Below, piece after piece: positions 3,221 to 17,019 of a DNA stretch of 64,000 nucleotides (within the stretch, counting starts at the first letter, position 1; each line of letters begins with the position of its first letter). Below the pieces are notes generated by a model. That model saw nothing but the letters and a program-made list of their open reading frames with translations, made no database searches and had not been told where the DNA came from. A program made the translations under genes and the position numbers. The DNA is from a virus. The DNA lies in IMG/VR virus record IMGVR_UViG_3300037245_002727, positions 7,325-71,324 of that record; one strand, given 5' to 3'.

Positions 3221-3626
3221 TTTTGACTCTCCTTCTTTTAAGTGGTTTCGATTTCTTTTTTCTCCGAACTTTAAGTCCTGATTGGTGTTTTTCTGTTTTC
3301 AACTTGAGTACTTCCGAAGTTTCGATATAGTACTTTTGAATTATCGCTTTTACTTCTTGCTCAAATTGTCTACAACTTTTACAAGGGTTCCAATCTTCGA
3401 GATTCTTTTCATTAAACCGTCTTTGAAGACAATTTAATATATGCAATCTTTGCCGGTTGATGTCACAATAAAAAGTAGTAACTGGGTTGAAGTATTGGCA
3501 GGTATCGGAGTCAATTGATATTTTAGACTTCGTTACTTTGCATTTTTTTAGAAGATCTTCACCGACTTTCCGGACAGGATTCAAAATTTTGGAATCCATG
3601 AAGTGATAGCAGTATAGACATTTCAT
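3165..3626 (-). CDS. Cys-rich hypothetical protein with a very basic C-terminus
   Basis: CLYC and CKSC motifs; C-terminal LKVRR/LKRRR repeats. Confidence 0.65.
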   Translation of the reverse strand: MKCLYCYHFMDSKILNPVRKVGEDLLKKCKVTKSKISIDSDTCQYFNPVTTFYCDINRQRLHILNCLQRRFNEKNLEDWNPCKSCRQFEQEVKAIIQKYYIETSEVLKLKTEKHQSGLKVRRKKKSKPLKRRRVKIAKTPTAKLKRRRGNNRK

Positions 3627-3670: not shown

Positions 3671-4579
3671 CTATAAGTCAATTTTTCTTTTGAGTTCGAC
3701 ATTAGGTATCTTCTCAAGCTTTGCCATAATTCCCTCTAGCTTGCCGGAAATCTCATTTCGAAAGTCATCATTATTTTTCAGTCTGTCTATACTTACTTTC
3801 TTCATTTCCCGTCTAAGTCTGCCAACTATCATGGTTAGTTTTTTGTCGTCTACTTCGCCACGCCACAGATCATCCCACTTGTCTATAAAGCGAGAGATAG
3901 AACCGACAGACTTTCCATGTAGTTCGTCACCGTCATCTTGACATTTGCTGTGCAAGTTGTCTATACGCTTCAGTAAGTCATTCCCAATAACTGTCACTGT
4001 CATTTCTTCCATCTCGTCTAACATACCTTTAATCTTGGAGACCTGCATTTGGTATGCCTTGCTGTCAAATACTTCGAGTCCTTTTGAAGGTACTCCGAAG
4101 TAGAAGGGAGTCCATCGAATATAAAATCGTTGCCTGATTTCTTTTTTACTCGGATAGAGTTCAGGGTGATATTCGTTGGGATATTTTTTCTTGAACTTTG
4201 CCTTGAGAGAAGTAATTGCTTCAGCAAGTATTTCTACCCTCTCATAAAACATCGGCATATATTCATTATTCAAGGTCTCTTCTACTTCGAGTATTTTATC
4301 TTGTGGGATTCGAAAAACAGAGTCAATAGGGAAGGGAAGTGAATTGTTTTTGACAAAGTACTTCGCTTTATTTTGTACTGTCAAGATATCATCTATCAGA
4401 GTTTTATCATGAAGTAAATCTTGGGTAGCTCTCACAATTTCCTTTGGAACTTTCTTGCCAAGTTTATTCTTATCAAACTTCGCGGAAGCAGTCCAAAAAC
4501 CTCTCTGAAAGTTAATCAGTACGCACTCATTTAGTTTGTCAATCCTTTGAGTCAAGTCAATGCTCGTATTTTTAGCCAT
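3671..4579 (-). CDS. DUF3150-like protein
   Basis: Length about 300 aa; the FW..SAK, SLPF...F.IP and YPS..EIR.RF...W segments resemble DUF3150 (recognised by eye). Confidence 0.55.
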   Translation of the reverse strand: MAKNTSIDLTQRIDKLNECVLINFQRGFWTASAKFDKNKLGKKVPKEIVRATQDLLHDKTLIDDILTVQNKAKYFVKNNSLPFPIDSVFRIPQDKILEVEETLNNEYMPMFYERVEILAEAITSLKAKFKKKYPNEYHPELYPSKKEIRQRFYIRWTPFYFGVPSKGLEVFDSKAYQMQVSKIKGMLDEMEEMTVTVIGNDLLKRIDNLHSKCQDDGDELHGKSVGSISRFIDKWDDLWRGEVDDKKLTMIVGRLRREMKKVSIDRLKNNDDFRNEISGKLEGIMAKLEKIPNVELKRKIDL

Positions 4580-4680
4580 GATATAAATCCTCCTATTAGT
4601 TTAGATAACTCATAATTGAGATACCTGCGAAAGGTAGTCAAACCAAATTGCTTCAGCTTGACTACCCTGCCCGGTTTCAA

Positions 4681-5169
4681 TTAGTAGTCGAGTCTGTCCA
4701 CCATGTCTTCATACATGGTTATCATCTCGGAGGTAGCACACTCGAGAGAATTGTCGTCATCTACTTCTTCCATGAAATTCATAAAAGCTTTTTCAAATGC
4801 TTTGACTTTCTTTTTCGAAGGTTTTTTGTCGGGTTTCCTTCTCTTGCTATCCGGTTCGAATTCTTCACTATCGTGGTCATCATTCTCATCCTCTTCAGAG
4901 CATTCTCGAATCTCTTTTGAGACAACTTCTAATAATGTTGGATGCAGTTTGTTTCGACTTTCTGCCATGGAATCCTGTAAGATGGTTGATAGTACTTCTT
5001 GAGTTAACTCGATACAGCCATGTTTGCTTATAGTCTCGGATTCCACAAGAATGTCATATAGAGTAGTAAAGCTTTCTCTCAAGTAATGAGCTGTTTCCTT
5101 AACGAGGGTTTCAAGTGCTTTACTTTCCCATACTTCGATTAAAGCCACTTTTCTTTTCATCTTCGCCAT
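4681..5169 (-). CDS. Acidic hypothetical protein (cassette)
   Basis: GGAGGATT SD; the stop codon forms the end of the repeat. Confidence 0.75.
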   Translation of the reverse strand: MAKMKRKVALIEVWESKALETLVKETAHYLRESFTTLYDILVESETISKHGCIELTQEVLSTILQDSMAESRNKLHPTLLEVVSKEIRECSEEDENDDHDSEEFEPDSKRRKPDKKPSKKKVKAFEKAFMNFMEEVDDDNSLECATSEMITMYEDMVDRLDY

Positions 5170-5265
5170 GATTTAATCCTCCAATGTAGTTATAGGTAAA
5201 TCATAATTGAGATACCTGCTAGGTAGACAAACGAGATGCTTGTCTACCCTGCCCGGTTTCAATCA

Positions 5266-6237
5266 TTATCGGCCACGCCGACGGACTTTCAACTTGGTAG
5301 TTGTTTTCTTTGAATGTCTTCGAATCGAGAGACTTGATTGCTTCTCTTTTCGTCTCGTTTTCAATTTGACTTCAGCATCACCGACGGGACCAACAAAATT
5401 TTCATAGATGCTTGTAATAGCAGTCATCCATGTTTTTGTTGGTTTGGCTTTCCCGTCCCACTTCTCCGGAATTTTAATGTATTCCGTCAAAAGTTCTTCA
5501 GCACTTTCGGCTGACATGTTATCAGCTATGACGTACCGAGAAGGCTCGTGGATGATCGAATACTTTCCATTTGACTTCGATACTACAAAGAAGTCCGGTC
5601 TACCAGACACAATGTCCTGGACTTGCTCAGAGACCATTTCAGAGAGTACTTTGATGAACTTCTTAGTCATTAAAGCAAATCGAACTTTCAAGATGGTGTT
5701 AACATCTTCTCTCGTGAGGAAGTCCTCTTTTGAGTCAAGCGGTTTTGGCTTGTTAATGTCTAACTTTGGTTTCGGCTCAAGTGCTTTCTTATCATCCACT
5801 TGCTGGGGAGTAGTCTTCTTTTGAAGTCCAGCTTTGTCATGGATCTTTTTGATGAAAGCTTTCTCTTCGGCAGCTGTTTTCTCCGGTGGTTTTTTCTTCA
5901 CGACGAATGCTTTCCTGTCAGCCGCTTTGACTTCCAAAACTAAGTCTTTAATAACTCTTCGATCCCAACATTTACAGCAAGTAACTTCCGTTGGATCTTT
6001 CCAAATGCCAGGTTCAAGAAGTACTTTCTTATTGCAAAGCATTGATCCATCGGCAGTCACAGCGTGAACCACTGAACCAATAACGCGACTATTGTAACCT
6101 ATAATCCAGTCACTTGATTTGACTGCTTTGGGTGTTGTTTCCGGCGTTTTGGTAGAGGGTTTCTCTTGACTACCTTTCTGCTGCTTTGCTCTGGCGGCAT
6201 TGGCTTCGGCTTTTTTTTGCTTATTACTTTTTGACAT
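5266..6237 (-). CDS. Lys-rich hypothetical protein (cassette)
   Basis: SD; possible Zn site H..C..CCKC; basic C-terminal tag. Confidence 0.75.
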   Translation of the reverse strand: MSKSNKQKKAEANAARAKQQKGSQEKPSTKTPETTPKAVKSSDWIIGYNSRVIGSVVHAVTADGSMLCNKKVLLEPGIWKDPTEVTCCKCWDRRVIKDLVLEVKAADRKAFVVKKKPPEKTAAEEKAFIKKIHDKAGLQKKTTPQQVDDKKALEPKPKLDINKPKPLDSKEDFLTREDVNTILKVRFALMTKKFIKVLSEMVSEQVQDIVSGRPDFFVVSKSNGKYSIIHEPSRYVIADNMSAESAEELLTEYIKIPEKWDGKAKPTKTWMTAITSIYENFVGPVGDAEVKLKTRRKEKQSSLSIRRHSKKTTTKLKVRRRGR

Positions 6238-6332
6238 TTTTCAAATCCTCCTATGTTAGATAACTCATAATTGAGATACCTGCTATAGGTAGTCAAACTG
6301 TCTTAAAGCTTGACTACCCTGCCCGGTTTCAA

Positions 6333-6512
6333 TCATTTTACTTCTTTTCCTGATAAGGCTGCATGGTATGCTTCCTTTGTGCTCATTTTGATTGGAGGTT
6401 TCGGCTTGTACACTGCTGAATATATTATGTGCAATGGTATTGTAATAAATAAACCGAAGAAGCCAAACAAAAAAGCAAAAAAATGTAATGTAATAAATAT
6501 GAGATGACCCAT
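6333..6512 (-). CDS. Small membrane protein (cassette)
   Basis: Likely start is MGHLIF after GGAGG; hydrophobic N-terminal half. Confidence 0.65.
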   Translation of the reverse strand: MGHLIFITLHFFAFLFGFFGLFITIPLHIIYSAVYKPKPPIKMSTKEAYHAALSGKEVK

Positions 6513-6608
6513 AATAAACCTCCATGTAGTTATAGGTACTTCATAATTGAGATACCTGCGGAAGGTAGTCAAACTGTCTTAAAGCTTGACTACCCTGCCC
6601 GGTTTCAA

Positions 6609-6797
6609 TTATACATTGTCAAATTGAGATTTGTAATACTTTTCATAGTGCTTTCTTGACATTGTGAGATAACATGTTTCGTGTGTTTTCAAGTCAGTAA
6701 TCGGCACTATTACCTTGACTGGTATACCTGCTTCACAAAAAGGACATTCTTTTGTTGGGCAGCCAATCATTTTCGATGGACTTTTTTTGTCTTCCAA
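6609..6797 (-). CDS. Small Cys-containing protein
   Basis: SD GGAGGT with a TTG start; CP..CPFC motif. Confidence 0.6.
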   Translation of the reverse strand: MEDKKSPSKMIGCPTKECPFCEAGIPVKVIVPITDLKTHETCYLTMSRKHYEKYYKSQFDNV

Positions 6798-6805
6798 GTT
6801 ACCTC

Positions 6806-8230
6806 CTAAACATCTATACGACGTTTCTTTAATTTAACTTTCTCTCCAATCATATCATCACTTTTAATAGTCCGTCCCTCTGACCATTTTTCCAGTCCCA
6901 CGATTTCCTCTTTCATAGTAGTGTATAGAGGCAACACGAATTTGCTTGCTTCTATAAGAGTTGAACCTCTCATTTCAGCATTGTGGCAGAGAGTTTCAAT
7001 TTCGCTACCCGACCAATGATCTGTTTTCGGAATGACTTTACATTGGTTGGGAGTCAATTGGAACTTGTCTATATAGTGATTCATGATCTTCTTCCGAACC
7101 TTTTCATTGGGTAGTCCGATATAAATCGGTGCGGTGTCCCAGCGGCCTGCTCGTAAGTACTCTGGAGGCAAACCACGGAAGGTGTTACAAGTACCACCGA
7201 TGTAGCATCCAGGCGGTCTATTCTGAAAGAACTCTAAGAATTGGCCGATTGCTCTGCTAGTTACTCCACTATCCATAGAACTACTTCCGCCGACTCCGGC
7301 AAATTGCTTTTCCATTTCATCGAAGACGAAATAACTATCACCCAATGACCATGCAAGGTCGATAAGTGCTTTGACGTTTTTGTCAGTTTCGCCATGATAC
7401 TTTGAGAATAGCTGACCTGTATTAATCATTAGAGTCAATTTTTTGGAAGCATATGCAAATGACTTCACCAACATTGTTTTACCACAGCCTGGAGGTCCGA
7501 TGAATAGTACACCTTTCGCATTGGGATTGTGAATTGTAGACATAACAAAATCTCTTGGAATGTCATAACCAATAATGTCTTCAGGTTTGACGGTTGGTTC
7601 GAGTACTGTAGCCAATCCAGAATTTTTAATTGCTTGACTTCTATAATCGTTTATCACTTTAATGTCAAACCTTTTCTCTTTTACAAGCGATAAATTATAG
7701 ACATTTTGCAATTCCCTTTTTGGCAAGCCTTTTGAGGCATTAACAATTTGCTTAAGGTCTTTGCCTTTCGGCATAAATTCTTTAGCCGGTGATGAATGCT
7801 CGATTATTTCCTGGATTTCTTCACTATCTGGAAGTTTTAACTCTATCATAGTGAAGTCATTTTTTAACTCAGCAGGTATTTTCTCGACAGGCGCTACCAC
7901 TACAATGGCTTTGCCTTCATTTGCCCAAACAGAAAATGAATCCTGTATTGTTTGGATAACCGGTGGCTTGTCTATAAACCAATGAAAGTTATACAGGAAT
8001 TTTACTGCTCGACCTTGAGTACTAGTTAACTCATTCAAAGGTTGTAATCCAGGCATTGGTCCAGCAGAGTCTAAACAATTCCAAGAGGTAACTTGGGCTT
8101 TACTACCATCTTTGAATTCAAAGTTTTCGATTGCTTCCTGAACACTCGTCTTCACTCGATCTGCTTCGGAAGTATTAATCCAGTAGCAAGGGAAGCCAGC
8201 TCGAAGATGGTCGATAAGTTGCTGACACAT
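6806..8230 (-). CDS. AAA+ ATPase, Ycf46/SpoVK-like
   Basis: Walker A GPPGCGKT, Walker B FVFDEMEK, SRH LPPEYLRAGRWD, SGSEIE lid; degenerate N-terminal AAA domain typical of Ycf46. Confidence 0.85.
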   Translation of the reverse strand: MCQQLIDHLRAGFPCYWINTSEADRVKTSVQEAIENFEFKDGSKAQVTSWNCLDSAGPMPGLQPLNELTSTQGRAVKFLYNFHWFIDKPPVIQTIQDSFSVWANEGKAIVVVAPVEKIPAELKNDFTMIELKLPDSEEIQEIIEHSSPAKEFMPKGKDLKQIVNASKGLPKRELQNVYNLSLVKEKRFDIKVINDYRSQAIKNSGLATVLEPTVKPEDIIGYDIPRDFVMSTIHNPNAKGVLFIGPPGCGKTMLVKSFAYASKKLTLMINTGQLFSKYHGETDKNVKALIDLAWSLGDSYFVFDEMEKQFAGVGGSSSMDSGVTSRAIGQFLEFFQNRPPGCYIGGTCNTFRGLPPEYLRAGRWDTAPIYIGLPNEKVRKKIMNHYIDKFQLTPNQCKVIPKTDHWSGSEIETLCHNAEMRGSTLIEASKFVLPLYTTMKEEIVGLEKWSEGRTIKSDDMIGEKVKLKKRRIDV

Positions 8231-8326
8231 AATAAATCCTCCTATTGTATAGGTAAATCATAATTGAGATACCTGCGGAAAGTAGTCAAACTTAACTAAT
8301 TGCTTGACTACCCTGCCCGGTTTCAA

Positions 8327-8578
8327 TCAAAAGGGTGATAAAAAGGGAAGGTAGATAAAATTTTCGCTACCAAGATATTTTCGATATTCCTGTAATTCTT
8401 TCATGGCTTGCTTATAGTTAAATCTATCAACAAGATATGGTGTTGGAGTTTCCTCTTCTTGGACTAAGACAAGAAAATGTTTATCTTTATCGAAGTCAAG
8501 AACAGAATCCATTTCCCGAAATCCATGAAATGACTTCTCTTCTTCTTTCCTTCTAACAACGGTTTCTTTCAATTCCAT
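8327..8578 (-). CDS. Hypothetical protein (cassette)
   Basis: SD leader; the stop lies in the repeat end. Confidence 0.7.
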   Translation of the reverse strand: MELKETVVRRKEEEKSFHGFREMDSVLDFDKDKHFLVLVQEEETPTPYLVDRFNYKQAMKELQEYRKYLGSENFIYLPFLSPF

Positions 8579-8670
8579 TTTTAATCCTCCTATTTGGTAG
8601 GTACTTCATAATTGAGATACCTGCTGAAGGTAGACAATCCTTTCAGATTGCCTACCCTGCCCGGTTTCAA

Positions 8671-9051
8671 TTAATCGTCATACATCAATACCAGTTTAAC
8701 ATCACCGTTTGGGAGTGTTACTTCTGAGTAGTCGGTAACTTCCATCCAATCAATTGCTTGGGTGACTTCTTCTTTCCAGTAACCTTGAATGCATTTGGAT
8801 AAAGTTTCCATACTCAGTTGGCCGTTTTTAGCGCCCCAATGGTCATATTTTACATCACCTTCATTTGTCACTGCGATTGGGTATTTCCAATCGGGTAGCA
8901 GACAAGAAGCAATACAAGGGACTTTGTTACTACCATATTGGTCGATAAGATGCTTGCCTGTCTGGATTTGAGTAGCTCCAATGTCTTTACAAGTTTTCAG
9001 AAAGAGGAGAGCATTCTTGATATTCGCTTCATAAGTATAGATATGAGACAT
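8671..9051 (-). CDS. DUF1257 (Ycf35)-like protein
   Basis: MSH...IKN N-terminus, YD.WG motif and C-terminal L.NG.VKL are typical of DUF1257. Confidence 0.6.
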   Translation of the reverse strand: MSHIYTYEANIKNALLFLKTCKDIGATQIQTGKHLIDQYGSNKVPCIASCLLPDWKYPIAVTNEGDVKYDHWGAKNGQLSMETLSKCIQGYWKEEVTQAIDWMEVTDYSEVTLPNGDVKLVLMYDD

Positions 9052-9245
9052 TATTCGAATCCTTTCGTTTTAAAATGTTCAACGATAGAAGTATGGTTTA
9101 CGACTGCTTTCGCCGCTTCTATCATCACTTCGAATGAATCAGCTTCCGGAGTACACTTTGAAAGTATTTTAACTAGTCTTGCACATTTTTGACCATAGGC
9201 TGATTCGTTTATTAACTGTTCGAATATTTTCGTTCTTTTGGACAC
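9051..9245 (-). CDS. Hypothetical protein
   Basis: SD AGGAG; stop/start coupled to the next gene. Confidence 0.55.
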   Translation of the reverse strand: MSKRTKIFEQLINESAYGQKCARLVKILSKCTPEADSFEVMIEAAKAVVNHTSIVEHFKTKGFE

Positions 9246-9267
9246 TTTTATATCTCCTAGTTAATAG

Positions 9268-9468
9268 TTATCCACACCACCCAGAAGGCAACCCGTTTGA
9301 AATGTTATCTTCTTCTTGGTAGTACTCGTCTTTTACTTCACTCTCGACAGGTTCACCAAAAAGATCATCCAAAAAGGCTGTCTTTTGTAGACATGCGGCA
9401 CCTTTGAAGTCAAATGCTTCTCTCTTAATTTTACCATCTTTGGTAATTGTTATTTCGACTCTTGGCAT
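9268..9468 (-). CDS. DUF2997-like protein
   Basis: VEITI..DG.I......F.G..C...T..L...G.......EYY pattern. Confidence 0.65.
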   Translation of the reverse strand: MPRVEITITKDGKIKREAFDFKGAACLQKTAFLDDLFGEPVESEVKDEYYQEEDNISNGLPSGWCG

Positions 9469-9559
9469 GAAATCCTCCTATATAGTATTAGGTAACTCAT
9501 AATTGAGATACCTGCGGAAGGTAGTCAAACATAAGCTTGACTACCCTGCCCGGTTTCAA

Positions 9560-9739
9560 TTATTCATTTAGTTTTTCTTTCGGGATTATAAGTTCGATGG
9601 TGCCATTTTCCCATTCGCGAGATATTATGTCGCGAGTAGTTTCGTCTAAAATAGCTACCTCATTAATCCAGATTAGAAAAACTTTTCCAATGAGACCTTC
9701 CTTTTCCGCTGCTTTGTATGGAATTGAAATTGATTTCAT
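9560..9739 (-). CDS. Hypothetical 59-aa protein (not in ORF track)
   Basis: Hand translation MKSISIPYKAAEKEG...EKLNE*; SD AGGAG; the TAA forms the repeat end. Confidence 0.6.
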   Translation of the reverse strand: MKSISIPYKAAEKEGLIGKVFLIWINEVAILDETTRDIISREWENGTIELIIPKEKLNE

Positions 9740-9748
9740 AATAGGCTC

Positions 9749-9961
9749 CTAGTAAATCGGTTTGCCTTGTCTCGCGACGTCTCTTTGCATTGCTTTCATA
9801 TCTTGCTTGATTGTAATTTGCCGTTTATGATGGGTGAAGCAGTATTTCGCTTCTGGTACTTTAGCAAGCAAGTTTAGCTTGAGACCTTTATTACAAATGA
9901 GACAAAAACGTTTTGTCGATACTTCGCGAAAATTAAACGGTTTTCTGGAAGTTGCTGACAT
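9749..9961 (-). CDS. Small Zn-finger-like protein (cassette)
   Basis: Likely start MSATSRK after the SD; CLIC..CFTH. Confidence 0.6.
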   Translation of the reverse strand: MSATSRKPFNFREVSTKRFCLICNKGLKLNLLAKVPEAKYCFTHHKRQITIKQDMKAMQRDVARQGKPIY

Positions 9962-10052
9962 AATAAATCCTCCTATATCTGGTAACTCATAATTGAGATA
10001 CCTGCCAGATAGACAAGTCATATAGACCATTGTCTATCCTGCCCGGTTTCAA

Positions 10053-10247
10053 TTACTTCTTTTTTTCTTTGGCTTTTTTGTAAATTTGTAATGTTTTTAA
10101 AGACATGTAGATAACTTCTTCAACATCGGTTATGAAGCCACAGACTTGACAAATTTCTTCATCACCTTCTATTATACTGTAACAATGCCCACAAGCATAG
10201 TCATCGTTGGGACTGTCTATAATATGAATTAAGCAAGTTGTTCCCAT
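10053..10247 (-). CDS. Small Zn-ribbon protein (cassette)
   Basis: CGHC...CQVC. Confidence 0.65.
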   Translation of the reverse strand: MGTTCLIHIIDSPNDDYACGHCYSIIEGDEEICQVCGFITDVEEVIYMSLKTLQIYKKAKEKKK

Positions 10248-10339
10248 TTTTAATCCTCCTATTTGGTAGGTACTTCATAATTGAGATACCTGCTGAAGGT
10301 AGACAATCCTTTCAGATTGCCTACCCTGCCCGGTTTCAA

Positions 10340-10546
10340 TTAGTCGTCTGTATCGTCTTCGACGATTTCAATGATGATTCTTTTTGGCATGTTTTTGACT
10401 TTCTCTTTGTCAAAGTAGATGGTGCCAGAGATAGGCTCCGAGTAGTCACCAACCTTAAAACGCGCTTTTCTTTTGGTATCTTTCTCGAAAACTGCTTCAA
10501 CAACCATTTCATCTGATTTCTTTTTACTACTTGCTTTCTTCGCCAT
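10340..10546 (-). CDS. Hypothetical protein (cassette)
   Basis: SD; stop at the repeat end. Confidence 0.7.
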   Translation of the reverse strand: MAKKASSKKKSDEMVVEAVFEKDTKRKARFKVGDYSEPISGTIYFDKEKVKNMPKRIIIEIVEDDTDD

Positions 10547-10641
10547 GATTGAAAATCCTCCAATGTAGTTATAGGCACTTCATAATTGAGATACCTGCCA
10601 GGTAGACAAGTCATATAGACCATTGTCTACCCTGCCCGGTT

Positions 10642-10794
10642 TCAATTGATAATATTAAATAGTTTTGCCATACTGGTATAGTATTCTTTATCAAGTCTAT
10701 ATGTCATAAGTCGATTCCAGCGATACATAACCTTTTCAGCATGGCCGAAGTTGAAGTTAAATCGAAAAATTAAAAGGCAAATAAATAGTTTCAT
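10642..10794 (-). CDS. Hypothetical 50-aa protein (not in ORF track)
   Basis: Hand translation MKLFICLLIF...LFNIIN*; the TGA lies inside the repeat. Confidence 0.45.
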   Translation of the reverse strand: MKLFICLLIFRFNFNFGHAEKVMYRWNRLMTYRLDKEYYTSMAKLFNIIN

Positions 10795-10796
10795 TT

Positions 10797-11000
10797 TTAC
10801 CCCATGTAGTCATTTCGGATGACGTTAATGCCGTGGATGCGTACTCCATGCTTTCTGATATGTCTCTTGAATATCTTGCCATACGGCACCCCTTTATAGG
10901 ATTTCCGTACCATGACGGTTTTGGCATTACTACTGACGATTTCGACAACCCTTGCGATTCCATCAACTCTGGCATGTCCAAATAAAATAGCGGTATTCAT
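10797..11000 (-). CDS. Small basic protein (cassette)
   Basis: Follows the AGGAGGATT leader. Confidence 0.65.
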   Translation of the reverse strand: MNTAILFGHARVDGIARVVEIVSSNAKTVMVRKSYKGVPYGKIFKRHIRKHGVRIHGINVIRNDYMG

Positions 11001-11090
11001 AATAAATCCTCCTATGCATTAGATAACTCATAATTGAGATACCTGCGGAAGGTAGTCAAAGTTTCCCTTGACTACCCTGCCCGGTTTCAA

Positions 11091-11267
11091 TTAGGTTTTC
11101 TTATTTCTTTTCGCCATAAGGAGTACTGTTATCGCATTCAACTCTCGAACAGACATGCGAAGTAATCCACTTTGAGTGTCTACCCATTCACTTCTCTCCG
11201 GTAGATAAGCATTTGGCCGAAGTAGTTCAAGAATATTTTCAATCATTTCCATTTTTCGCTTTCCCAT
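11091..11267 (-). CDS. Hypothetical protein
   Basis: Start MGKRK after GGAGGAG. Confidence 0.6.
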   Translation of the reverse strand: MGKRKMEMIENILELLRPNAYLPERSEWVDTQSGLLRMSVRELNAITVLLMAKRNKKT

Positions 11268-11269
11268 GA

Positions 11270-11437
11270 TTAACTCCTCCATGTAGTTGACTTCATTGCA
11301 TCGACAATTTTACTATCTTCTATAATTGAGTCATCTTGACATTTTGAATCGCTACAAACTGTTTTTCCAGTAGCATATGCAAGATGAATATTTTTACCAG
11401 AGTCAATGAATTCTTTTTTACAGAAGTCACATTTCAT
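11270..11437 (-). CDS. 55-aa Cys-rich protein (not in ORF track)
   Basis: Hand translation MKCDFCKKEF...VCSDSKC...WRS* after the cassette leader. Confidence 0.6.
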   Translation of the reverse strand: MKCDFCKKEFIDSGKNIHLAYATGKTVCSDSKCQDDSIIEDSKIVDAMKSTTWRS

Positions 11438-11532
11438 TTTTTAATCCTCCTATTTGGTAGGTACTTCATAATTGAGATACCTGCGAAAGGTAGTCAAACC
11501 AAATTGCTTCAGCTTGACTACCCTGCCCGGTT

Positions 11533-11682
11533 TCAATTAATCATTTCCCAGAACTTATAAAACAACGCTTTGAAGTCAAACCTTTTTGCGAGGTAGTTAT
11601 AAGTTAAGTTGATGATATCGAGCATTCCAAGTAGTGCAAGGAATGCGATAATAAACATAAGCCATCCGGATAACTGCATCAT
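11533..11682 (-). CDS. 49-aa membrane peptide (not in ORF track)
   Basis: MMQLSGWLMFIIAFLALLGML...; SD GAGGAG; the TGA lies inside the repeat. Confidence 0.5.
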   Translation of the reverse strand: MMQLSGWLMFIIAFLALLGMLDIINLTYNYLAKRFDFKALFYKFWEMIN

Positions 11683-11684
11683 TT

Positions 11685-12011
11685 TTAGACTCCTCTTTTA
11701 TGTTTATGGCAGAAAAGAATATTATTAATCCCGGCTACATGGAATGAATCGTTATAAAGCATTGACTCACCACATTTGCCACAGTTTAACTCGAAGTCGG
11801 TAGTCAATTCACGATTGTTCTCTTGAGTTAAATAAGCGAATTCTTTCAGGCCGCGTTTTACAGGAACTTTAAAATTTTTCGGCGCTGTTTTCCAGGTTTT
11901 GCACTTTCCATTGACTCTCCATCGTTGTGGAGTGCCGTCGGCATTGCATTGAAAGATGTGAAAAATTTCTGTTCCAATTGATAGTGCCATTGCGGTTTCC
12001 TTGTTTATCAT
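11685..12011 (-). CDS. Hypothetical protein with a C-terminal Cys/His cluster (cassette)
   Basis: SD leader; CGKC...CHKH. Confidence 0.7.
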   Translation of the reverse strand: MINKETAMALSIGTEIFHIFQCNADGTPQRWRVNGKCKTWKTAPKNFKVPVKRGLKEFAYLTQENNRELTTDFELNCGKCGESMLYNDSFHVAGINNILFCHKHKRGV

Positions 12012-12086
12012 CTTTAATCCTCCTATATGTAGTATAACACATAATTGTGTTACCTGCCGAAGGTAGTCAAACCGTTTAAAGCTTGA

Positions 12087-12545
12087 CTACCCTGCCCGGT
12101 TATACAATTTAGCGTAATATGCATTTGGAGTGGAGAAGTAAATGTCCCGAGTTCCTTTATAGTAAAAGCCACTTGAGACAGATATTTTTTGCAATTCCGA
12201 AGGCTGAATTCCGACTGCTTCATAATAGCTACCAGACTTTCTATCAGTAGTAACCAAATGATTTTCGAAAGTTAACATTTTGCCTTTCTTGTTTTCTGTT
12301 TGGCCAGTTACTAGGTAGCAGAATTCTAATTCGTCTCTCATTAATCTGTCGTTATGAACTTCTCTCATTCCGTCTAAGAAAGCGGAGATGTGTCGAGGAG
12401 TTCCTTTCGGCAAGTTCTTTTTGATTTCCAAAAATCTCTCATTAATTGTATCTGAAGTCAAATGAGAGAAACGAGCACTTGAAAATAAAGAGTTAACGGC
12501 TGATTTCGCACTTGTCTGGACATTGCTTTGTCTATTATAATTCAT
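12087..12545 (-). CDS. Hypothetical protein reading into variant repeat 13
   Basis: SD leader; the TAG stop lies inside the hairpin. Confidence 0.7.
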   Translation of the reverse strand: MNYNRQSNVQTSAKSAVNSLFSSARFSHLTSDTINERFLEIKKNLPKGTPRHISAFLDGMREVHNDRLMRDELEFCYLVTGQTENKKGKMLTFENHLVTTDRKSGSYYEAVGIQPSELQKISVSSGFYYKGTRDIYFSTPNAYYAKLYNRAG

Positions 12546-12644
12546 TGTAAATCCTCCTATTTGGTAGGTACTTCATAATTGAGATACCTGCGGAAGGTAG
12601 TCAAACTTAAGTACTCGCTTGACTACCCTGCCCGGTTTCAATCG

Positions 12645-13010
12645 TTAAAAAATGTGTACTGTGTACGCCACTTTAATGATTTTTCCATCGGTTTCGATTA
12701 CTCCCATAGCGTCTAAAGTGGCGATAATAACTGAAATATAACCGCCACAAGTAGCTTGCATATCAGGTCCGCCAGATTTGACTCTTAAGTTATTGGCATA
12801 TTTGGCGACTTTGAGCGCGGTGAAACTTTTCATTTGGGAGTAATGTTTGAAGGACTTTGCGACGGCTTCACTCACTGTCAGAACACCGTTGGGCGGAGAG
12901 AAGTAGTTTGAAGATTTCCCAATTTGCTTGTCTGCGACTTTCTCCAACTTCTCGAAAGTTTGCTTCATGGTCGAAAAACTTTTCTCTAATTGTTTGGCTT
13001 CGCTTAACAT
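12645..13010 (-). CDS. Hypothetical protein (cassette)
   Basis: SD leader. Confidence 0.7.
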   Translation of the reverse strand: MLSEAKQLEKSFSTMKQTFEKLEKVADKQIGKSSNYFSPPNGVLTVSEAVAKSFKHYSQMKSFTALKVAKYANNLRVKSGGPDMQATCGGYISVIIATLDAMGVIETDGKIIKVAYTVHIF

Positions 13011-13109
13011 TTTTAAATCCTCCTATTTAAGTTAGATAACTCATAATTGAGATACCTTCGTAAGTAGTCAAACCGTTTAAAGCTTGACTACTCCGAGCCG
13101 GTTTCAATT

Positions 13110-13376
13110 TTAGAAAGTCTTAGACATTTCAAGATTTTTAATTGATAGAGTAAGTTTTTCCCCACAGTCTGAACAAGTACTTTTGGCAGTGTTAACAGTA
13201 GGCCAAACTACCCAATTGACTTCATGGCAACATTTGAGACACCGATGCTCACTTTTATAAACATTATAATCGACGCCAGTTGTCTTCTCGATATAGTTAC
13301 AAGAAAGTTTTTCAGTATTAAGAACTATGCGAGTCATTTTGTTTTTACCCATAGAGATATTCATAACACTAGACAT
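13110..13376 (-). CDS. Zn-ribbon protein (cassette)
   Basis: CLKC...CSDC. Confidence 0.7.
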   Translation of the reverse strand: MSSVMNISMGKNKMTRIVLNTEKLSCNYIEKTTGVDYNVYKSEHRCLKCCHEVNWVVWPTVNTAKSTCSDCGEKLTLSIKNLEMSKTF

Positions 13377-13467
13377 TTTTAATCCTCCTATTTGGTAGGT
13401 ACTTCATAATTGAGATACCTGCTAAAGGTAGTCAAACTATATGTTTGACTACCCTGCCCGGTTTCAA

Positions 13468-13803
13468 TTACTTATAATTTTTAACACCTTTCAGCTTTCG
13501 TTTGGTATTACGACGAATTCTTTTACCTATAAGATCTGTATCAATACCTTTATCTCGAAGGTAGATAAAAAACTGTCGAATTGTTTTACTTCCCTTCATG
13601 GAGTTACATGTTTTACAACATGTTACCAGATTACTTGCTGAGTTATCACCACCAAGTTCTTGAGAGATAATATGGTCGAGAGTTAAAATCGAGTTTTCAG
13701 GAGCATTGCCACAGTAGATACATTTTAAATTGTCTCTTTTGTAGATTGCATGTCTCTTGAGAGTTCGAATCCATTTGCCACCATTATTAGCTATATTAGC
13801 CAT
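13468..13803 (-). CDS. HNH endonuclease (cassette)
   Basis: RD..KCIYCG...TLDHII....GG....NLVTCCKTCN..KG. Confidence 0.9.
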   Translation of the reverse strand: MANIANNGGKWIRTLKRHAIYKRDNLKCIYCGNAPENSILTLDHIISQELGGDNSASNLVTCCKTCNSMKGSKTIRQFFIYLRDKGIDTDLIGKRIRRNTKRKLKGVKNYK

Positions 13804-13889
13804 GATATATCCTCCTATTGGGTACTTCTTAATTGAGATACCTGCTAAAGGTAGTCAAACCTTTTTAAGCTTGACTACCCTGCCCGGTT

Positions 13890-14111
13890 TCAATCTCTAT
13901 CGGTAAACATTCCAGTTGTATAGTTAACAGTTTTGAAGTATATCTTCAAGTTTTCCATATCACTTCCATGGCATTCGTTGGAGAAGGTTGTAAAATCATC
14001 GGCTTCCACTAAGTCTTCAAAAAGCATTATTTTATTATCGTCATCTTTGAGATACTTTTTTAGAGACTTGCCAGTCGTTTTGTATGTCACTATTCTTAAT
14101 ATTCCAAACAT
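13890..14111 (-). CDS. Hypothetical protein (cassette)
   Basis: SD; the TGA lies inside the repeat. Confidence 0.7.
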   Translation of the reverse strand: MFGILRIVTYKTTGKSLKKYLKDDDNKIMLFEDLVEADDFTTFSNECHGSDMENLKIYFKTVNYTTGMFTDRD

Positions 14112-14200
14112 ATTTAACTCTCCTATGTATGAGGTATTCGTAATTGAGATACCTGCGGAAGGTAGTCAAAGTTTCCCTTGACTACCCTGCCCGGTTTCAA

Positions 14201-14503
14201 TTAAATAACTTCGATGATATATCTCATATAATCGTAACCTTGAGTATCGACTAAATAAAACTTATCATCAACTACTAAAATAAACTTTTGGAAACCTGGT
14301 TTGAAGTCAAAGTCCAGAGTTAAATAATTGTGCATGTTGTTATTATCATGCCACAGAACTTCGGACTTAAGTTCAGGAAAGCAATTTAAGTTATAAGGGA
14401 TTTCAGGAACTTCGATGTTTCCAATGTCTTCGATTGTATGAGGTTTATGAGTCATTTCATCCAGGAAGTCAATGTCAGTAACGTTTTGGGGATTCTTTTT
14501 CAT
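14201..14503 (-). CDS. Hypothetical protein, first gene of the array
   Basis: SD AAGGAG; C-terminal VDTQGYDYMRY. Confidence 0.7.
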   Translation of the reverse strand: MKKNPQNVTDIDFLDEMTHKPHTIEDIGNIEVPEIPYNLNCFPELKSEVLWHDNNNMHNYLTLDFDFKPGFQKFILVVDDKFYLVDTQGYDYMRYIIEVI

Positions 14504-14519: not shown

Positions 14520-15217
14520 TTGTTTGTAGTTAAGTAGCCAACAAGTACTTCAGACATAGTTTCGCAGAGATATCTAATGCTACTGTATATCTCTGAAGCA
14601 CTTAGTAATACTTAACTTCATAGGAGGAGGATTTTTTGTCTGCGAGTTACTTTTTCATGCAATTAGGCAAGTTGTAAGTATTGGAGATAACTTGCAAGCA
14701 AGTACTTTTCACCCGGTATTGTGCTTTATAACTAATCACCTTTATAACGCTCACATGTGAGTTATTTCCCCATTGTAGAATTTTCAATGCGGGAAAGCGT
14801 TTTTAATACCTTGAAAGTATACTTGTCACCAAGTAGCAAGGTAATCAGTAGCACATCGACTTGTGAGCCAAACGCCAACATTTGACTCTTTCACCGTCTT
14901 CAATCATCAACCCTTCGGCTGACTTGCGGTTACTTAGATTACTTAAGTTTTCGAAAGCAGTTTAATCAGAGTTAAGTTGTAAAATCGACGCGGTTCCAAA
15001 TTATCGGTAATCATCAAAAGTGGGAGCGTTGTCAGCCACTATAACTATTTTACGATAATTACTTACTTTCGTAATAAGATTTTTTGTTGCTTAAGGTATA
15101 TTTGGAAACCGTTATTTTGTGACTTGTTATCACTCCAAAGTTTCTTGGGTGATAGAGTAGGTTTCGTCCACTCTGTGGCTACCCCTTCGGCCTATGAATT
15201 GACTGACCGAAGTCAGA
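14520..15217 (-). ncRNA. Candidate large structured non-coding RNA / 5' leader
   Basis: No credible ORF; at least 10 local and long-range helices; a cUUCGg tetraloop at the 5' end on the minus strand (see findings). Confidence 0.55.
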
Positions 15218-15220
15218 CAT

Positions 15221-15248
15221 AAGATAATACGCGAAGGCTTCTTGTCAA
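15221..15248 (-). promoter_or_regulatory. Candidate sigma70 promoter for the ncRNA and cassette array
   Basis: TTGACA-N16-TATCTT on the minus strand, with A-tracts upstream that resemble an UP element. Confidence 0.5.
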
Positions 15249-15639
15249 GTATATATATGGGATTTTTTAATCTTTTTTTAGCCTTCAGGCAAATACCAAG
15301 TGATTTTAGGTACTTACGAAGGCAATTATTTTCTATTTTCAAGTGATAATAATGCTTGGAACCTATACAGACTGACACATGGTGATATAAAAATAGGCCC
15401 AAAAACAGCGGTTTTGTCAAGGTTTATACAAATAGCGCCAGAAATGGAGTTTTAACCGTGATTCAGCCTGAAGCCTTATTCCATAGGCTTTTGGGCAGGA
15501 AATTTATTTTAAATTATTTTGATTTATTTTACGATTTCACGAGATTCGCATTACTTTGGCATATAAATTTCAAAAGTAATGGACTTAGGCTGAATTCAGG
15601 GTAGATGCTTATGTGGTATAGCTTTGGAGGCTGTTTTAA

Positions 15640-15810
15640 CCGCCATAACGGGTATTCTGTTAATTATAGGGGTATTCTACCTGCTATATGCGTATTCTAC
15701 CTGCCACAGCCTATTTTACAGCCATGGTGGTTACGATAGGGGTATTCTATAGCCATGGTGGTTACGACATGCTGTGGTGGTTACGATAGGGGTATTCTGT
15801 TAACGATATG
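15640..15810. repeat. Cluster of short direct repeats (GTATTCT x5, GGTGGTTACGA x3)
   Basis: Seen directly, e.g. GGTGGTTACGATAGGGGTATTCT occurs twice. Confidence 0.7.
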
Positions 15811-15859
15811 CCTTCATAGTAACCACATCACTTGATAATATTGGACTTTCGCAATCTGT

Positions 15860-16200
15860 ATTGAAATTCATATGAATTCATATCATTTGCTAAAACCACT
15901 TGGATATATGCTTATAGGCTTTTAACTGCTTTGACTTCATTTCAATTTTCATTTCATTTCAACTGCTTTTATTTACTCGAATGTTATTGCCAGGTTGTTT
16001 AACCTTTCAAAGCGATTGAATTCATTTCAATTTGAAAGTCATAATGAAAAATTGAAGTGTAGGTTGCTTACTGGTATACTTATAGGCTTCATTTCATATG
16101 AATTCATATCATATCATTTCAATTGCTTTTAATACATATATGCACTGCTATAGCATACACATTGTTTTTAACTCTTCATTTCATTGGCTTTCATATGACA
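15860..16200. repeat. AT-rich TTTCA / TTCATATGAATTCATATCAT repeats
   Basis: Multiple TTTCA units; TTCATATGAATTCATATCAT occurs twice. Confidence 0.6.
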
Positions 16201-16434
16201 TGAAGGTTTGAAAGTAACTTCATAGCACTCTCGTTTGGGTATTCTCTCATAGAGTAAAATGAGACAAAAAGGGGAAGGGCAGTTGGTTTGCCTATAAACA
16301 GATAGACAAGCTTTGCTCAAAAACCTGTAGAGACATAGCAGTGAAGGCGACTTGATAAGAGGGAAGGAGTATGCTACAATTGACTCTCTTAAATCAATTG
16401 TTTCAATACTTAACTTTAACAGATAGGAGTTATC

Positions 16435-17019
16435 ATGGCGCAAAGATTACAATTTAGAAGGAAGCATAAGCGAGTTAATAACTTGTCGAGGAGTTATAAC
16501 AAGCGAGGGTTTCGTGAAGGCAAGTTAACTAATGCGGTTAGACGGTCAATCTTCGAGGCGGTTAGAATTGGTATGACTGAGTATCGAGCAGCCGAAATGG
16601 CAGGCATAACAAAGAAGACATTTGGTAAATGGTTAGATAGGGGGAGGCGAGAGAAACGAGGGAAGTATCACAACTTTCGTAAGAACCTGAAAATGATTAG
16701 TAAGAGTAGAGAGCATGAAGCACTTGAAGTCATTCGCAAGTGCGGGACAGGTATGTATACAGTAGTCGAAAAGAAGATAAAGACTTCAGGTGTAGGTACG
16801 TTAAAACAGACAGAAGTAGAAGTAAAAGAGAAAGTAATACTACCACAATGGCAAGCCCATGCGTGGTATCTTGAGAGGCTTCATAAGGAAACATATGGGA
16901 AGGAAGCAGTACTTGATGAAGCTACTCCAGAAGAGAGAGCACGAACAATTAATCAACTAGTTAAAGCAATGGATTTGAGCGTCCCAGCACCACGCGGAGG
17001 TAATGATGGAGATAGCTAA
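16435..17019 (+). CDS. Terminase small subunit
   Basis: HTH-like AAEMAGITKKTFGKW, WQAHAWYLER motif; immediately upstream of TerL. Confidence 0.75.
   Translation: MAQRLQFRRKHKRVNNLSRSYNKRGFREGKLTNAVRRSIFEAVRIGMTEYRAAEMAGITKKTFGKWLDRGRREKRGKYHNFRKNLKMISKSREHEALEVIRKCGTGMYTVVEKKIKTSGVGTLKQTEVEVKEKVILPQWQAHAWYLERLHKETYGKEAVLDEATPEERARTINQLVKAMDLSVPAPRGGNDGDS

Follow-up and report, generated by a model that had tools for sequence, protein, structure and literature searches.

An imperfect palindrome of 62–71 nt, present in 18 copies in the early region of an uncultured siphovirus-like phage, probably acts as an RNA punctuation or processing element. On balance, we favor a cis-acting role in RNA, as punctuation within one long early mRNA, over a DNA recombination site, and the more specific proposal that RNase III is the cleaving agent is made tentatively. 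A cutting or insulating signal is most likely because the hairpin sits where related phages carry self-cleaving ribozymes. The window analyzed was a stretch of 64,000 nucleotides of an IMG/VR virus record (IMGVR_UViG_3300037245_002727, positions 7,325 to 71,324). A first-pass annotation of this DNA had offered two roles for the hairpin, singly or together; the one in RNA processing or stability gained support from sense-strand structure, covariation, an alternating second hairpin (P3) and the occurrence of ribozymes at the same junctions.

All 18 copies, the number given in that annotation, were recovered on the minus strand between 4613 and 14203 by arm searches and by a covariance model (Table 1). 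The 19-mer of the 5′ arm had 17 matches at no more than 3 mismatches (0.01 expected from shuffles), and the 16-mer of the 3′ arm had 20 matches, 18 of them within the array, versus 0.69 expected. The covariance model (R1), an approach the annotation had recommended, was made from the window's own hairpin copies and scanned over the whole 71.3-kb record; it scored the 18 copies at 81–101 bits and otherwise returned just weak reverse-strand echoes of the same palindromes. The array is located downstream of a divergent region (approximately 14800–16400) and upstream of DUF3150-like, helicase and primase genes. A stop codon at or near the start of the palindrome had been claimed, and this holds for 17 of the 18 copies, whose upstream stop codon starts between -3 and +4 nt relative to hairpin base 1 (right at base 1 for 11 of them); in the remaining copy it starts at +19. 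Every copy is followed by a 5′UTR tail of 26–36 nt before the next ATG, with 14–21 nt between the hairpin end and GGAG and 6–11 nt between GGAG and ATG. Each of the 17 units with a hairpin at both ends contains 1–3 co-oriented ORFs, as had been described; the unit that follows the last hairpin is not bounded downstream.

Table 1. Positions of the hairpin array, its copies and associated genes in the window, with covariance model (R1) scores.
Feature	Position	Strand	R1 (bits)	Remarks
Whole array	4580..14203	-		18 hairpin-plus-5′UTR units, probably punctuating a leftward early operon
Hairpin copy 1	14141..14203	-	84.6	Fold -28.8 kcal/mol, z -6.0
Hairpin copy 2	13830..13896	-	96.9	
Hairpin copy 3	13407..13470	-	96.5	Fold -27.1 kcal/mol, z -7.9
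Hairpin copy 4	13044..13110	-	81.8	Most divergent 5′ arm; compensated changes in inner and small helices
Hairpin copy 5	12576..12644	-	91.5	
Hairpin copy 6	12042..12108	-	81.4	Upstream ORF stops 19 nt into hairpin; outer stem altered in both arms and in downstream third element
Hairpin copy 7	11469..11539	-	94.4	96% identity with copy 18 over 82 nt (family D14)
Hairpin copy 8	11031..11093	-	93.1	
Hairpin copy 9	10583..10648	-	84.2	Compensated T-A to A-T change in inner stem
Hairpin copy 10	10278..10342	-	91.9	99% identity with copy 13 over 105 nt (family D7); inner-stem G-U pair on sense strand
Hairpin copy 11	9990..10055	-	83.9	Compensated G-C to A-U change
Hairpin copy 12	9500..9562	-	96.1	Upstream of DUF2997 gene
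Hairpin copy 13	8609..8673	-	91.9	
Hairpin copy 14	8261..8329	-	93.2	Directly upstream of AAA ATPase gene
Hairpin copy 15	6544..6611	-	100.6	
Hairpin copy 16	6268..6335	-	97.9	Upstream of 323-aa gene
Hairpin copy 17	5204..5265	-	87.7	
Hairpin copy 18	4613..4683	-	95.0	Upstream of DUF3150-like gene
AAA+ ATPase gene	6806..8230	-		Inside array; marker for finding relatives
HNH endonuclease gene	13468..13803	-		One array unit
DUF2997 gene	9268..9468	-		Core gene, kept in 21 related loci
5′UTR tail (example)	9466..9499	-		Adjoins copy 12; first 9 nt can form P3, with GGAGGA and ATG after them

The repeat has the properties of an RNA that is structured on the mRNA-sense strand: its stems covary, it contains sense-strand G-U pairs and its sense fold is the more stable one. 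RNAfold reproduced the previously claimed fold, including a variable terminal loop, as a rod of ~25 bp. An outer stem (P1) of 6–7 bp is followed by a pair of bulges, 1 nt in the 5′ arm and 3 nt in the 3′ arm (the net two extra bases of the earlier description), a 3-bp helix, a 2x1 internal loop, a 2–3 bp helix, and an upper stem (P2) of 12 ± 1 bp (10 or more bp by RNAfold) with a small loop; the lower quasi-continuous helix has 12–13 bp. Fold energies lay between -25.7 and -31.5 kcal/mol (z-scores, -5.4 to -7.9), and in all 8 copies tested the antisense fold was the less stable one. The 17 distinct copies of the window were paired at 97.6% of 374 cells and had 5 pairs changed on both sides, which 0 of 500 shuffles matched; one sense-strand G-U pair was present in 17 of 17 and another in 5. 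Relatives contributed 49 distinct copies, in which pairing reached 97.9% of 1032 cells (20–44% in slid controls), with both-sided changes at 20 of 22 pairs and an upper stem of 11–13 bp in 37 copies (mode 12), often with a tetraloop.

Arrays of the same motif, with unrelated inner-stem sequences, were detected in one related viral contig and 22 metagenome contigs. In these relatives, an ORF ends at the hairpin base in 58 of 63 testable copies, and a Shine-Dalgarno (SD) sequence and start codon lie downstream of the hairpin in 63 of 64. Several unpaired bases were also strongly conserved when 48 distinct copies from relatives were compared (R in 46, opposing A in 44, first bulge A in 44, internal-loop G in 43 and 5′ bulge A in all 48), in an alignment that is biased, as the pattern used to find the contigs included these bases and the model served as the template for aligning the copies. 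This conservation exceeds the needs of a generic RNase III substrate and is also what a ribozyme core or a specific protein might require. The terminal loop varies freely, with an insertion of ~50 nt in one copy. Variant hairpins with the same architecture and other loop bases occur in the same operons (L038 family b; L066, L068 and L082); these variant families, and the absence of terminators at the repeats, were counted in favor of mRNA punctuation.

The 3′ arm of P1 can pair instead with the first 9 nt of the 5′UTR, forming the alternative hairpin P3. P1 and P3 are mutually exclusive, and both covary. P3 pairing was 84% in window copies and 81% in relatives, and the variable bulge bases changed together with the UTR (A-U 26 and U-G 8; next pair, A-U 24 and C-G 9). 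When 10 copies from L038 were folded, the 3′ part alone gave a hairpin of 8–9 bp within the first two nucleotides and left the SD open; in 2 L038 copies the P3 state was already favored in the minimum-energy fold. In thermodynamic modeling, mean SD accessibility rose from 0.42 to 0.60 on removal of the P1 5′ arm (Wilcoxon p = 0.008), the effect being weak or absent in 7 of the 18 window copies.

In related phages that share this gene order, the corresponding intergenic junctions hold pistol and type II hammerhead ribozymes, as scored with Rfam. One of these phages, L033, contains 5 pistol matches above the Rfam gathering score and 2 type II hammerheads just under it, together with a third copy from that family of repeats, and its pistol ribozymes are found at the junctions corresponding to hairpin copies 16 and 18. 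The junction of copy 18 is occupied by a type II hammerhead in L036 and L042-L045, and 38 type II hammerhead matches at or above the gathering score were detected in 9 of 16 further related loci. In addition, just upstream of the ATPase gene, the place of copy 14 in the window, a hammerhead-core pattern was seen in 12 of 21 relatives. Like the hairpin, the sister-phage ribozymes start at the upstream stop codon and are followed by a spacer and SD. The proposed functional equivalence rests on position, since no Rfam ribozymes occur beside the hairpin arrays of the phages that have them and just one hairpin occurs among the L033 ribozymes.

The tandem hammerhead and pistol operons treated in PMC3088659 and PMC6765202 provide a close comparison, as such ribozymes and the hairpin occupy matching positions between genes when the syntenic early operons of sister phages are compared. 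According to these sources, ~2-kb polycistronic fragments from three tandem hammerhead arrangements were cleaved during in vitro transcription (Perreault et al. 2011), and processing of polycistronic mRNA was suggested as their role. Unlike these ribozymes, the hairpin is unbranched, being neither a three-way junction nor a pseudoknot. It matched no family in Rfam 15, and the hammerhead CUGAnGA block had 32 matches in the window versus 37 expected, none of them at any repeat. As far as Rfam 15 and literature searches reach, the element is undescribed, as had been proposed.

The hairpin probably does the same job as the ribozymes of sister phages, splitting a polycistronic transcript into gene-sized mRNAs or insulating cistrons from one another. 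The cut would most likely be made by a host double-strand-specific RNase III-type endoribonuclease near the central irregular region. The upstream cistron would retain P2 as a protective 3′ hairpin, and the downstream cistron would refold so that its new 5′ end carries P3 and its ribosome-binding site is more exposed. RNase III is an assumption here because the phage record encodes no RNase III gene. RNase III processing sites (R1.1 and others) are present between the early genes of phage T7, and similar sites occur in Bacillus phage SP82. According to PMC1540722, E. coli RNase III substrates typically comprise two helical turns, internal loops or bulges confine cleavage to a single strand so that a protective 3′ hairpin is left, and a 28-nt upper stem-loop is released from the T7 R1.1[WC] substrate. 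The stem lengths of the repeat suggest an RNase III-like geometry: as in R1.1, irregular dsRNA of about two turns, interrupted centrally by an internal loop, lies between cistrons of a long early transcript, the upper stem-loop of ~12 bp plus tetraloop is comparable to the R1.1[WC] product, and a single-strand cut would likewise leave a protective 3′ hairpin (PMC1540722). Unlike at the T7 sites, there are 18 near-identical copies in 9.6 kb, bulge and loop bases are conserved across distant phages, and a covarying alternative hairpin extends into the 5′UTR.

An uncleaved structural switch for translational coupling or insulation, or an operator read by a phage RNA-binding protein, appears unlikely, even though several features agree with it. 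A ribosome terminating at the stop codon at the P1 base would melt the 5′ arm, the 3′ arm would form P3 and the next SD would be freed; in the operator variant, the protein would recognize the conserved loops. The first three P1 bases are indeed the stop codon in 11 of the 18 copies of the window and in 43 of 63 from relatives, and the exclusive, covarying P1 and P3, the modeled gain in SD accessibility when the 5′ arm is unavailable and the two L038 copies that already prefer P3 are all consistent with such a switch. However, the SD effect is lacking or weak in the 7 window copies mentioned above, no candidate RNA-binding protein was identified, and the elements filling these slots in relatives have self-cleavage as their only known activity, to which a non-cleaving switch would be a different solution. 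Cleavage would not preclude a switch, and the two may operate together. That the hairpin itself represents a new class of small self-cleaving ribozymes, which replaced hammerhead and pistol at the same junctions, is quite improbable. Its genomic slots are shared with two ribozyme classes, and it was such genomic association that reportedly led to the discovery of pistol, hatchet and twister-sister. Its size, strong covariation, conserved unpaired bases and lack of an Rfam match would also fit, and its 5′ half resembles the hammerhead "G" and "S" blocks (GAAA, hairpin, U-A) as defined in PMC10085705. On the other hand, an unbranched rod lacks the multi-stem junction or pseudoknot expected of self-cleavers, and 10 of 10 tested candidate motifs from ribozyme-bearing contigs, other than hammerhead variants, were uncleaved (PMC10085705). 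The absence of the CUGAnGA block at the repeats, sister hairpin families of the same operons without the conserved loop bases, and the freely varying terminal loop with its one long insertion also argue against a ribozyme.

A role in integron-like or other site-specific DNA recombination, with the units as mobile gene cassettes, is very unlikely for the hairpin; this was the other role proposed in the annotation. Like attC, the hairpin is an imperfect palindrome with extra-helical bases that separates promoterless, unrelated ORFs; among the 25 array ORFs, 17 lack a homolog in the 51 related loci, and non-adjacent copies are 96–99% identical, variable loops included (families D7, D14 and D15). 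In the suggested comparison of gene order, the position of the DUF2997/126-aa gene pair differed among relatives, some having it ahead of the ATPase gene and others behind; core gene order is kept in most. The recommended recombinase search yielded neither tyrosine nor serine recombinases in six-frame searches of the 71-kb record (~85% complete), extending to this record the earlier statement that an integrase is absent, and none occurred among the Pfam families listed for 89 ORFs. The attC cores (R″/R′) are missing from 18 of 18 copies, again as stated before. Moreover, G-U pairs and energy asymmetry favor the transcript strand, the element runs into a conserved 5′UTR with an RNA-level alternative hairpin, and ribozymes occupy the same places in relatives. 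A PeSL-like regulatory cassette, composed of an early sigma-70 promoter and a terminator stem-loop, is a still fainter prospect. TTGACT and AATTAT with a 17–18 nt spacer (scoring 9 of 12) are present in 11 of 18 window copies, and short repeated elements between small ORFans of an early region resemble the regulatory cassettes between small non-essential ORFs in hyperplastic regions of T4-type phages (PMC2839356). However, the -35-like hexamer is the 3′ arm of the inner stem and is retained in 2 of 49 distinct copies from relatives, and a transcript starting at these hexamers would lose most of the conserved structure. A scan found 5 terminator-like sites in the region versus 8.3 expected, none at any repeat. 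Unlike PeSL, the hairpin has no conserved promoter or terminator, and its conserved part is a covarying RNA fold. PeSL repeats could mediate modular shuffling via homologous recombination, as described in PMC2839356, and by analogy the ~100-nt repeats could possibly serve as passive substrates for homologous recombination.

Eighteen imperfect palindromes of 62-71 nt each were found on the minus strand of the window between positions 4613 and 14203. Within the window, the 19-mer of the 5′ arm matched 17 times with at most 3 mismatches (0.01 expected), and the 16-mer of the 3′ arm matched 20 times, 18 of them inside the array (0.69 expected). R1, a covariance model built from these copies, scored all 18 at 81.4-100.6 bits in a search of the window and the remaining 7.3 kb of the record; elsewhere in that sequence it returned only weaker reverse-strand echoes at the same sites. 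The upstream stop codon starts -3 to +4 nt from the first hairpin base in 17 of the 18 copies (exactly at that base in 11) and at +19 in one. Each hairpin is followed by 14-21 nt, GGAG, a further 6-11 nt and ATG. Bulges of 1 nt and 3 nt are present in all copies, and the 17 units lying between two hairpins each carry 1-3 co-oriented ORFs. The first-pass annotation had described the same 18 copies and the same order of stop codon, GGAG and ATG, and was accurate in both; the covariance-model search that it had proposed also gave matches in related contigs.

The data speak for an RNA structure, formed by the transcript strand. In the 17 distinct copies of the window, standard pairs occupied 97.6% of 374 cells and 5 pairs were changed on both sides, values for pairing and two-sided change that none of 500 shuffles equalled. 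One G-U pair was present in all 17 distinct copies and another in 5; these point to the sense strand because the opposite strand would have A-C mismatches at those positions. In addition, the sense fold was more stable than the antisense fold in all eight copies tested (-25.7 to -31.5 versus -20.1 to -25.7 kcal/mol), with z-scores of -5.4 to -7.9 for the sense fold.

Genes were identified with Pfam and PHROGs (25 of the 38 Pfam families found were listed) in a linear source record of 71,324 bases, estimated to be 85% complete, of which the window is bases 7325-71324. Besides the genes in the table, the plus strand encodes a head morphogenesis protein, a P22-type coat protein, tail tube, tape measure and a GpJ-like tip protein (Pfam/PHROGs). 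The array lies directly downstream of a divergent region at about 14800-16400, which parts it from the structural genes, and continues into the DUF3150-like, helicase and primase genes. Because of this position, we regard the array as the promoter-proximal part of a leftward early/replication operon. A Pfam family was found above cut-off in 3 of the 25 array ORFs, and 17 of the 25 had no tblastn match in 51 related loci. A 65% identical homolog of the array HNH gene was detected near position 4758 of the related locus L037, and in that locus only, which is consistent with a mobile homing-type gene. A further hairpin at 14525-14620 on the minus strand (96 nt, 36 bp) has a different sequence and lies just upstream of the ORF at 14201-14503, which precedes the first repeat of the array.

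Genes of the window placed by domain or family search
Feature	Position	Strand	Basis
Primase	392-1333	-	Pfam/PHROGs
Helicase	1324-2766	-	Pfam/PHROGs
AAA ATPase	6806-8230	-	Pfam above cut-off
DUF2997	9268-9468	-	Pfam above cut-off
HNH endonuclease, free-standing	13468-13803	-	Pfam above cut-off
Large terminase	17006-18430	+	Pfam/PHROGs
Portal	19020-20585	+	Pfam/PHROGs
DnaE-type polymerase (Pol III alpha, PHP domain) with UDG-superfamily domain	58731-62030	-	Pfam/PHROGs
UvsX/RecA-like recombinase		-	Pfam/PHROGs

With the array ATPase gene as a marker, alignment of homologs retrieved 25 related viral loci. R1 detected the motif in just two of them, L038, with two strong and several weaker copies, and L033, with a single copy. 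A gapped pattern shared by the window and L038 then identified 24 metagenome contigs. It also matched three contigs from bacterial genomes, one from a Neomarinimicrobiota MAG and two from Phaeodactylibacter (L087:998-1078, L088:7919-7996, L089:2752-2839). The Neomarinimicrobiota site is inside a 408-aa ORF and the Phaeodactylibacter sites have no inner stem. Given that about two chance matches were expected by our own estimate, these were rejected as chance, as were two of the metagenome contigs with sites inside a bacterial ORF (L072, 5881-5961; L077, 9829-9909).

On the contigs found by the pattern, R1 gave 69 matches, 49 of them distinct; counts of pairing, stem length and alternative folding over these 49 still take in L077, which was removed for counts of unpaired bases and gene setting. 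Sequences of the inner stem were entirely different across the 49 copies, and in 37 of them this stem was a perfect helix of 11-13 bp (mode 12), often closed by a tetraloop. Paired cells made up 97.9% of 1032, with slid controls at 20-44%, and 20 of 22 pairs changed on both sides: the small 2-bp helix alternates between G-C/C-G and G-C/U-A, and both the outer stem and the 3-bp helix covary as well. Unpaired bases were also kept in the 48 remaining distinct copies. All 48 have the A of the 5′ bulge; the internal loop has its G in 43 and R in 46, with the opposing A in 44, and the 3-nt bulge starts with A in 44 but varies at its two other positions. This conservation is biased, as the search pattern contained several of those bases and the alignment was fitted to the model. 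The gene setting was that of the window: an ORF of at least 40 codons ended at the hairpin base in 58 of 63 testable copies, the stop being the first three hairpin bases in 43 of the 63, and a Shine-Dalgarno (SD) sequence and start codon followed in 63 of 64.

A second hairpin family (family b) was observed beside the window-type motif in one operon of L038, on the plus strand at 322-413, 2666-2757, 3726-3815, 4239-4328, 4771-4862, 5140-5235, 6824-6913 and 7862-7953. It has the architecture of the window type, including an alternative 5′-terminal hairpin, with different loop and bulge bases, and loop-base variants of equal architecture were also present in L066, L068 and L082. The occurrence in the same operons of hairpin families that share one architecture and differ in loop bases suggests recognition of shape rather than of a fixed catalytic core. 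The same locus has an early gene built of 15-nt tandem repeats (3820-4059, plus strand), whose product we read as a putative pentapeptide-repeat protein.

The 3′ arm of the outer stem (P1), together with the 3-nt bulge, can also pair with the first 9 nt of the 5′-UTR to form an alternative hairpin (P3) with a loop of 4 nt. The P3 helix was paired in 84% of cases in the window and 81% in relatives, and the bulge bases covaried with the UTR (A-U 26 and U-G 8 at one pair, A-U 24 and C-G 9 at the next). When the 3′ part of 10 L038 copies was folded alone, a hairpin of 8-9 bp formed from the first or second base, leaving the SD unpaired; at full length, the minimum-energy fold was already P3 in 2 of these 10. 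For the window copies, removal of the 5′ arm of P1 raised the mean modelled probability of an unpaired SD from 0.42 to 0.60 (Wilcoxon p = 0.008), an increase that was large in about half of the copies and absent in 7 of 18.

Gene order in the relatives is DUF2997, a 126-aa gene, ATPase, a 323-aa gene, a DUF3150-like gene, a 153-aa gene, helicase and primase, and at junctions that hold hairpins in the window several relatives have self-cleaving ribozymes of known classes, encoded on the same strand. Five pistol ribozymes above gathering (38.6-57.1 bits) were found in L033 (6664-12771, plus strand), along with two type II hammerheads just below gathering and a third copy in the same repeat family. 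In 9 of 16 further loci (L036, L039, L040, L042-L046 and L048), type II hammerhead matches reached or exceeded gathering 38 times, with as many as 8 in one locus; RF02276 scores in relatives were 37.5-59.4 bits. The position directly upstream of the ATPase gene holds copy 14 in the window, the hairpin in L038 and a hammerhead-core pattern in 12 of 21 relatives, L052-L059 having been searched by a regular expression for this core, outside the Rfam scan. Upstream of the DUF3150-like gene are copy 18 in the window, a pistol ribozyme in L033 and a hammerhead in L036 and L042-L045. The ribozymes start right after the stop codon on the coding strand, with a spacer and then an SD downstream. No Rfam ribozyme was detected in 20 hairpin-bearing contigs (66.9 kb), a scan from which the small contigs L076, L078, L079 and L080 were left out. 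The sharing of junctions by hairpin, pistol and hammerhead implies that three or more unrelated RNA elements fill one functional slot. Together with the sense-strand fold and the covariation, these ribozymes support the role in RNA processing or stability that the first-pass annotation had offered as one of its options.

Other elements were observed in these relatives. L037 fills the same slots, among them the one upstream of the ATPase gene, with a repeated intergenic element of its own (6013-6054, 9930-9971 and 12667-12708, plus strand); it consists of a hairpin, a conserved stretch and a second short hairpin, has no Rfam match and is an unclassified candidate RNA. L041 has long near-perfect hairpins ahead of SD sequences (4187-4247 and 6457-6517) and a run of 10-nt periodic repeats, iteron-like in look (3432-3575).

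We infer that the hairpin punctuates the early transcript. RNase III sites lie between the early genes of phage T7, as they do in the Bacillus phage SP82, and the modelled geometry of the hairpin fits an RNase III-type substrate. The lower helices of 7, 3 and 2 bp form a quasi-continuous duplex of about 12-13 bp, below an upper stem (P2) of 12 ± 1 bp with a small loop, so that the double-stranded RNA extends over about two helical turns, as in bacterial RNase III processing sites. At the base of the upper stem, a conserved 2×1 internal loop and a linker of 1-3 nt provide a central irregularity able to limit cleavage to one strand. According to excerpts of PMC1540722, substrates of the E. coli enzyme usually cover two turns of the helix; internal loops or bulges limit RNase III to one phosphodiester, and the remaining 3′ hairpin guards against exonucleases. 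In the same paper, a 28-nt upper stem-loop is released from the T7 substrate R1.1[WC]. If the hairpin were cut on its 3′ side at the upper-stem base, the upstream cistron would end in P2 and the downstream RNA could form P3 at, or close to, the 5′ end so created. No RNase III gene was found in the phage record, and a host enzyme is therefore assumed to be the cleaving agent. No RNA run containing the array was found.

It is also conceivable, though improbable in our judgement, that the hairpin belongs to a new and unusually simple class of self-cleaving ribozyme, a rod of about 65 nt with the bulges and 2×1 internal loop as active site, which may derive from the half of a type II hammerhead that comprises GAAA, stem III and the cleavage site, and which would be interchangeable with hammerhead and pistol for cutting the early polycistronic mRNA. 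Its position, size, covariation and conserved unpaired bases would agree with this, as would the succession of GAAA, a helix and then U-A, ordered as in the L033 hammerheads (a likeness by eye); however, the fold is unbranched, the hammerhead CUGAnGA block is absent from the repeats, and sister hairpin families vary in their loop bases. A hammerhead in disguise was rejected: CUGAnGA occurs 32 times in 64 kb where 37 would be expected, never next to a repeat, and RF02276 matched neither the window at its gathering score nor the array at E ≤ 10. The pistol model RF02679 had no match in the window, and twister-sister was dismissed since it needs a junction and loop-loop contacts (PMC5660989, in the part available), both of which the hairpin lacks. 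Also against a new ribozyme class, excerpts of PMC10085705 report all 10 candidate motifs tested from ribozyme-bearing contigs, hammerhead variants apart, as uncleaved. Tandem hammerheads flanking genes in prophage-like regions cleave fragments of polycistronic RNA in vitro, and a part in mRNA processing has been suggested for them (excerpts of PMC3088659 and PMC6765202); according to the latter, the biological role that hammerhead, pistol and related ribozymes play in bacteria and phages is still largely unsettled. The stop-codon register and the competition between P1 and P3 also fit an uncleaved translational switch, driven by a ribosome stopping at the base of P1, and such a switch may coexist with cleavage.

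An integron-like recombination site, as the first-pass annotation had proposed, fails the defining tests. The imperfect palindrome with extra-helical bases is present but unspecific on its own; a six-frame search for tyrosine recombinases with PF00589 gave no match in the roughly 85% complete record of 71,324 bases, while 14 of 14 control genomes matched, no resolvase was found in the same record, and RYYYAAC and GTTRRRY cores in attC layout occurred in 0 of 18 copies on either strand. The suggested look for excision in read junctions turned up, among contigs of one DNA run compared with the array, 6 joints at the boundaries of repeats, and several loose ends there. The sides of every joint were short (25-55 nt), and 21 contigs fit two places; such joints arise from repeats or other organisms, and we attribute them to further hairpin copies carried by related phages in the sample rather than to excision or shuffling. 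A cassette of promoter and terminator, like the promoter-early stem-loop (PeSL) cassettes of T4-type phages, fails on both components: a match to a sigma-70-like promoter (9 of 12) was present in 11 of 18 copies, but this was rejected because the -35-like hexamer is not conserved in relatives, and no terminator-like site was found at a repeat. It is plausible from sequence comparison that the repeats of about 100 nt serve as passive substrates for homologous recombination, given copies that are 96-99% identical and non-adjacent, the phage's own recombinase, the many ORFans, and a module whose place with respect to the ATPase gene has changed in some relatives. Near relatives comprise just L035, a 5-kb contig ending short of the array, and proteins P0002-P0004 on contigs of at most 4 kb. 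The near-identical copies (8575-8679 and 10244-10348; 4602-4683 and 11458-11539; 9987-10054 and 10580-10647) comprise hairpin and UTR, variable loops included; they suggest recent duplication or gene conversion, and as long direct repeats could delete or duplicate the genes between them.

No Rfam 15 family matched the window at gathering; in the array, a threshold of E ≤ 10 gave six matches of snoRNA, miRNA and lncRNA type, all far below cut-offs. A megablast search with the array matched none of 50,697 phage records, and an exact 17-mer scan of viral contigs likewise gave nothing; a 16-mer scan gave 24 single matches, treated as chance. The hairpin was not found in the literature searched, supplementary motif lists of Weinberg/Breaker-type surveys excepted, so that its novelty rests on Rfam 15 and the literature searches and those supplements could already contain it. 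We file it with phage intergenic mRNA-processing elements, a known kind; no Rfam 15 family corresponds to the hairpin itself.

This phage clade offers a natural comparison, with type II hammerhead, pistol, hairpin or other unclassified motifs at the same early-operon junctions. This pattern argues that selection acts on punctuation of the early transcript, which would give every gene a standard 3′ hairpin and a standard 5′-UTR, an idea directly testable in this clade. If the hairpin is an RNase III site, these phages switch between host-dependent and host-independent RNA processing; if it cleaves itself, it represents a new ribozyme class. In synthetic biology, ribozyme or nuclease 'insulators' make gene expression independent of context. 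The hairpin unit resembles these under either reading, and may explain how unrelated ORFan genes added to the early operon are expressed.

Two further observations concern other parts of the window. The uracil-DNA glycosylase-superfamily domain of the DnaE-type polymerase is C-terminal (residues 969-1080). In the structural region, tandem coding repeats of 63 nt (also 54, 78 and 84 nt) occur on the plus strand at 34363-35194 and 44338-45251, the latter set inside a 929-aa ORF at 42802-45591.
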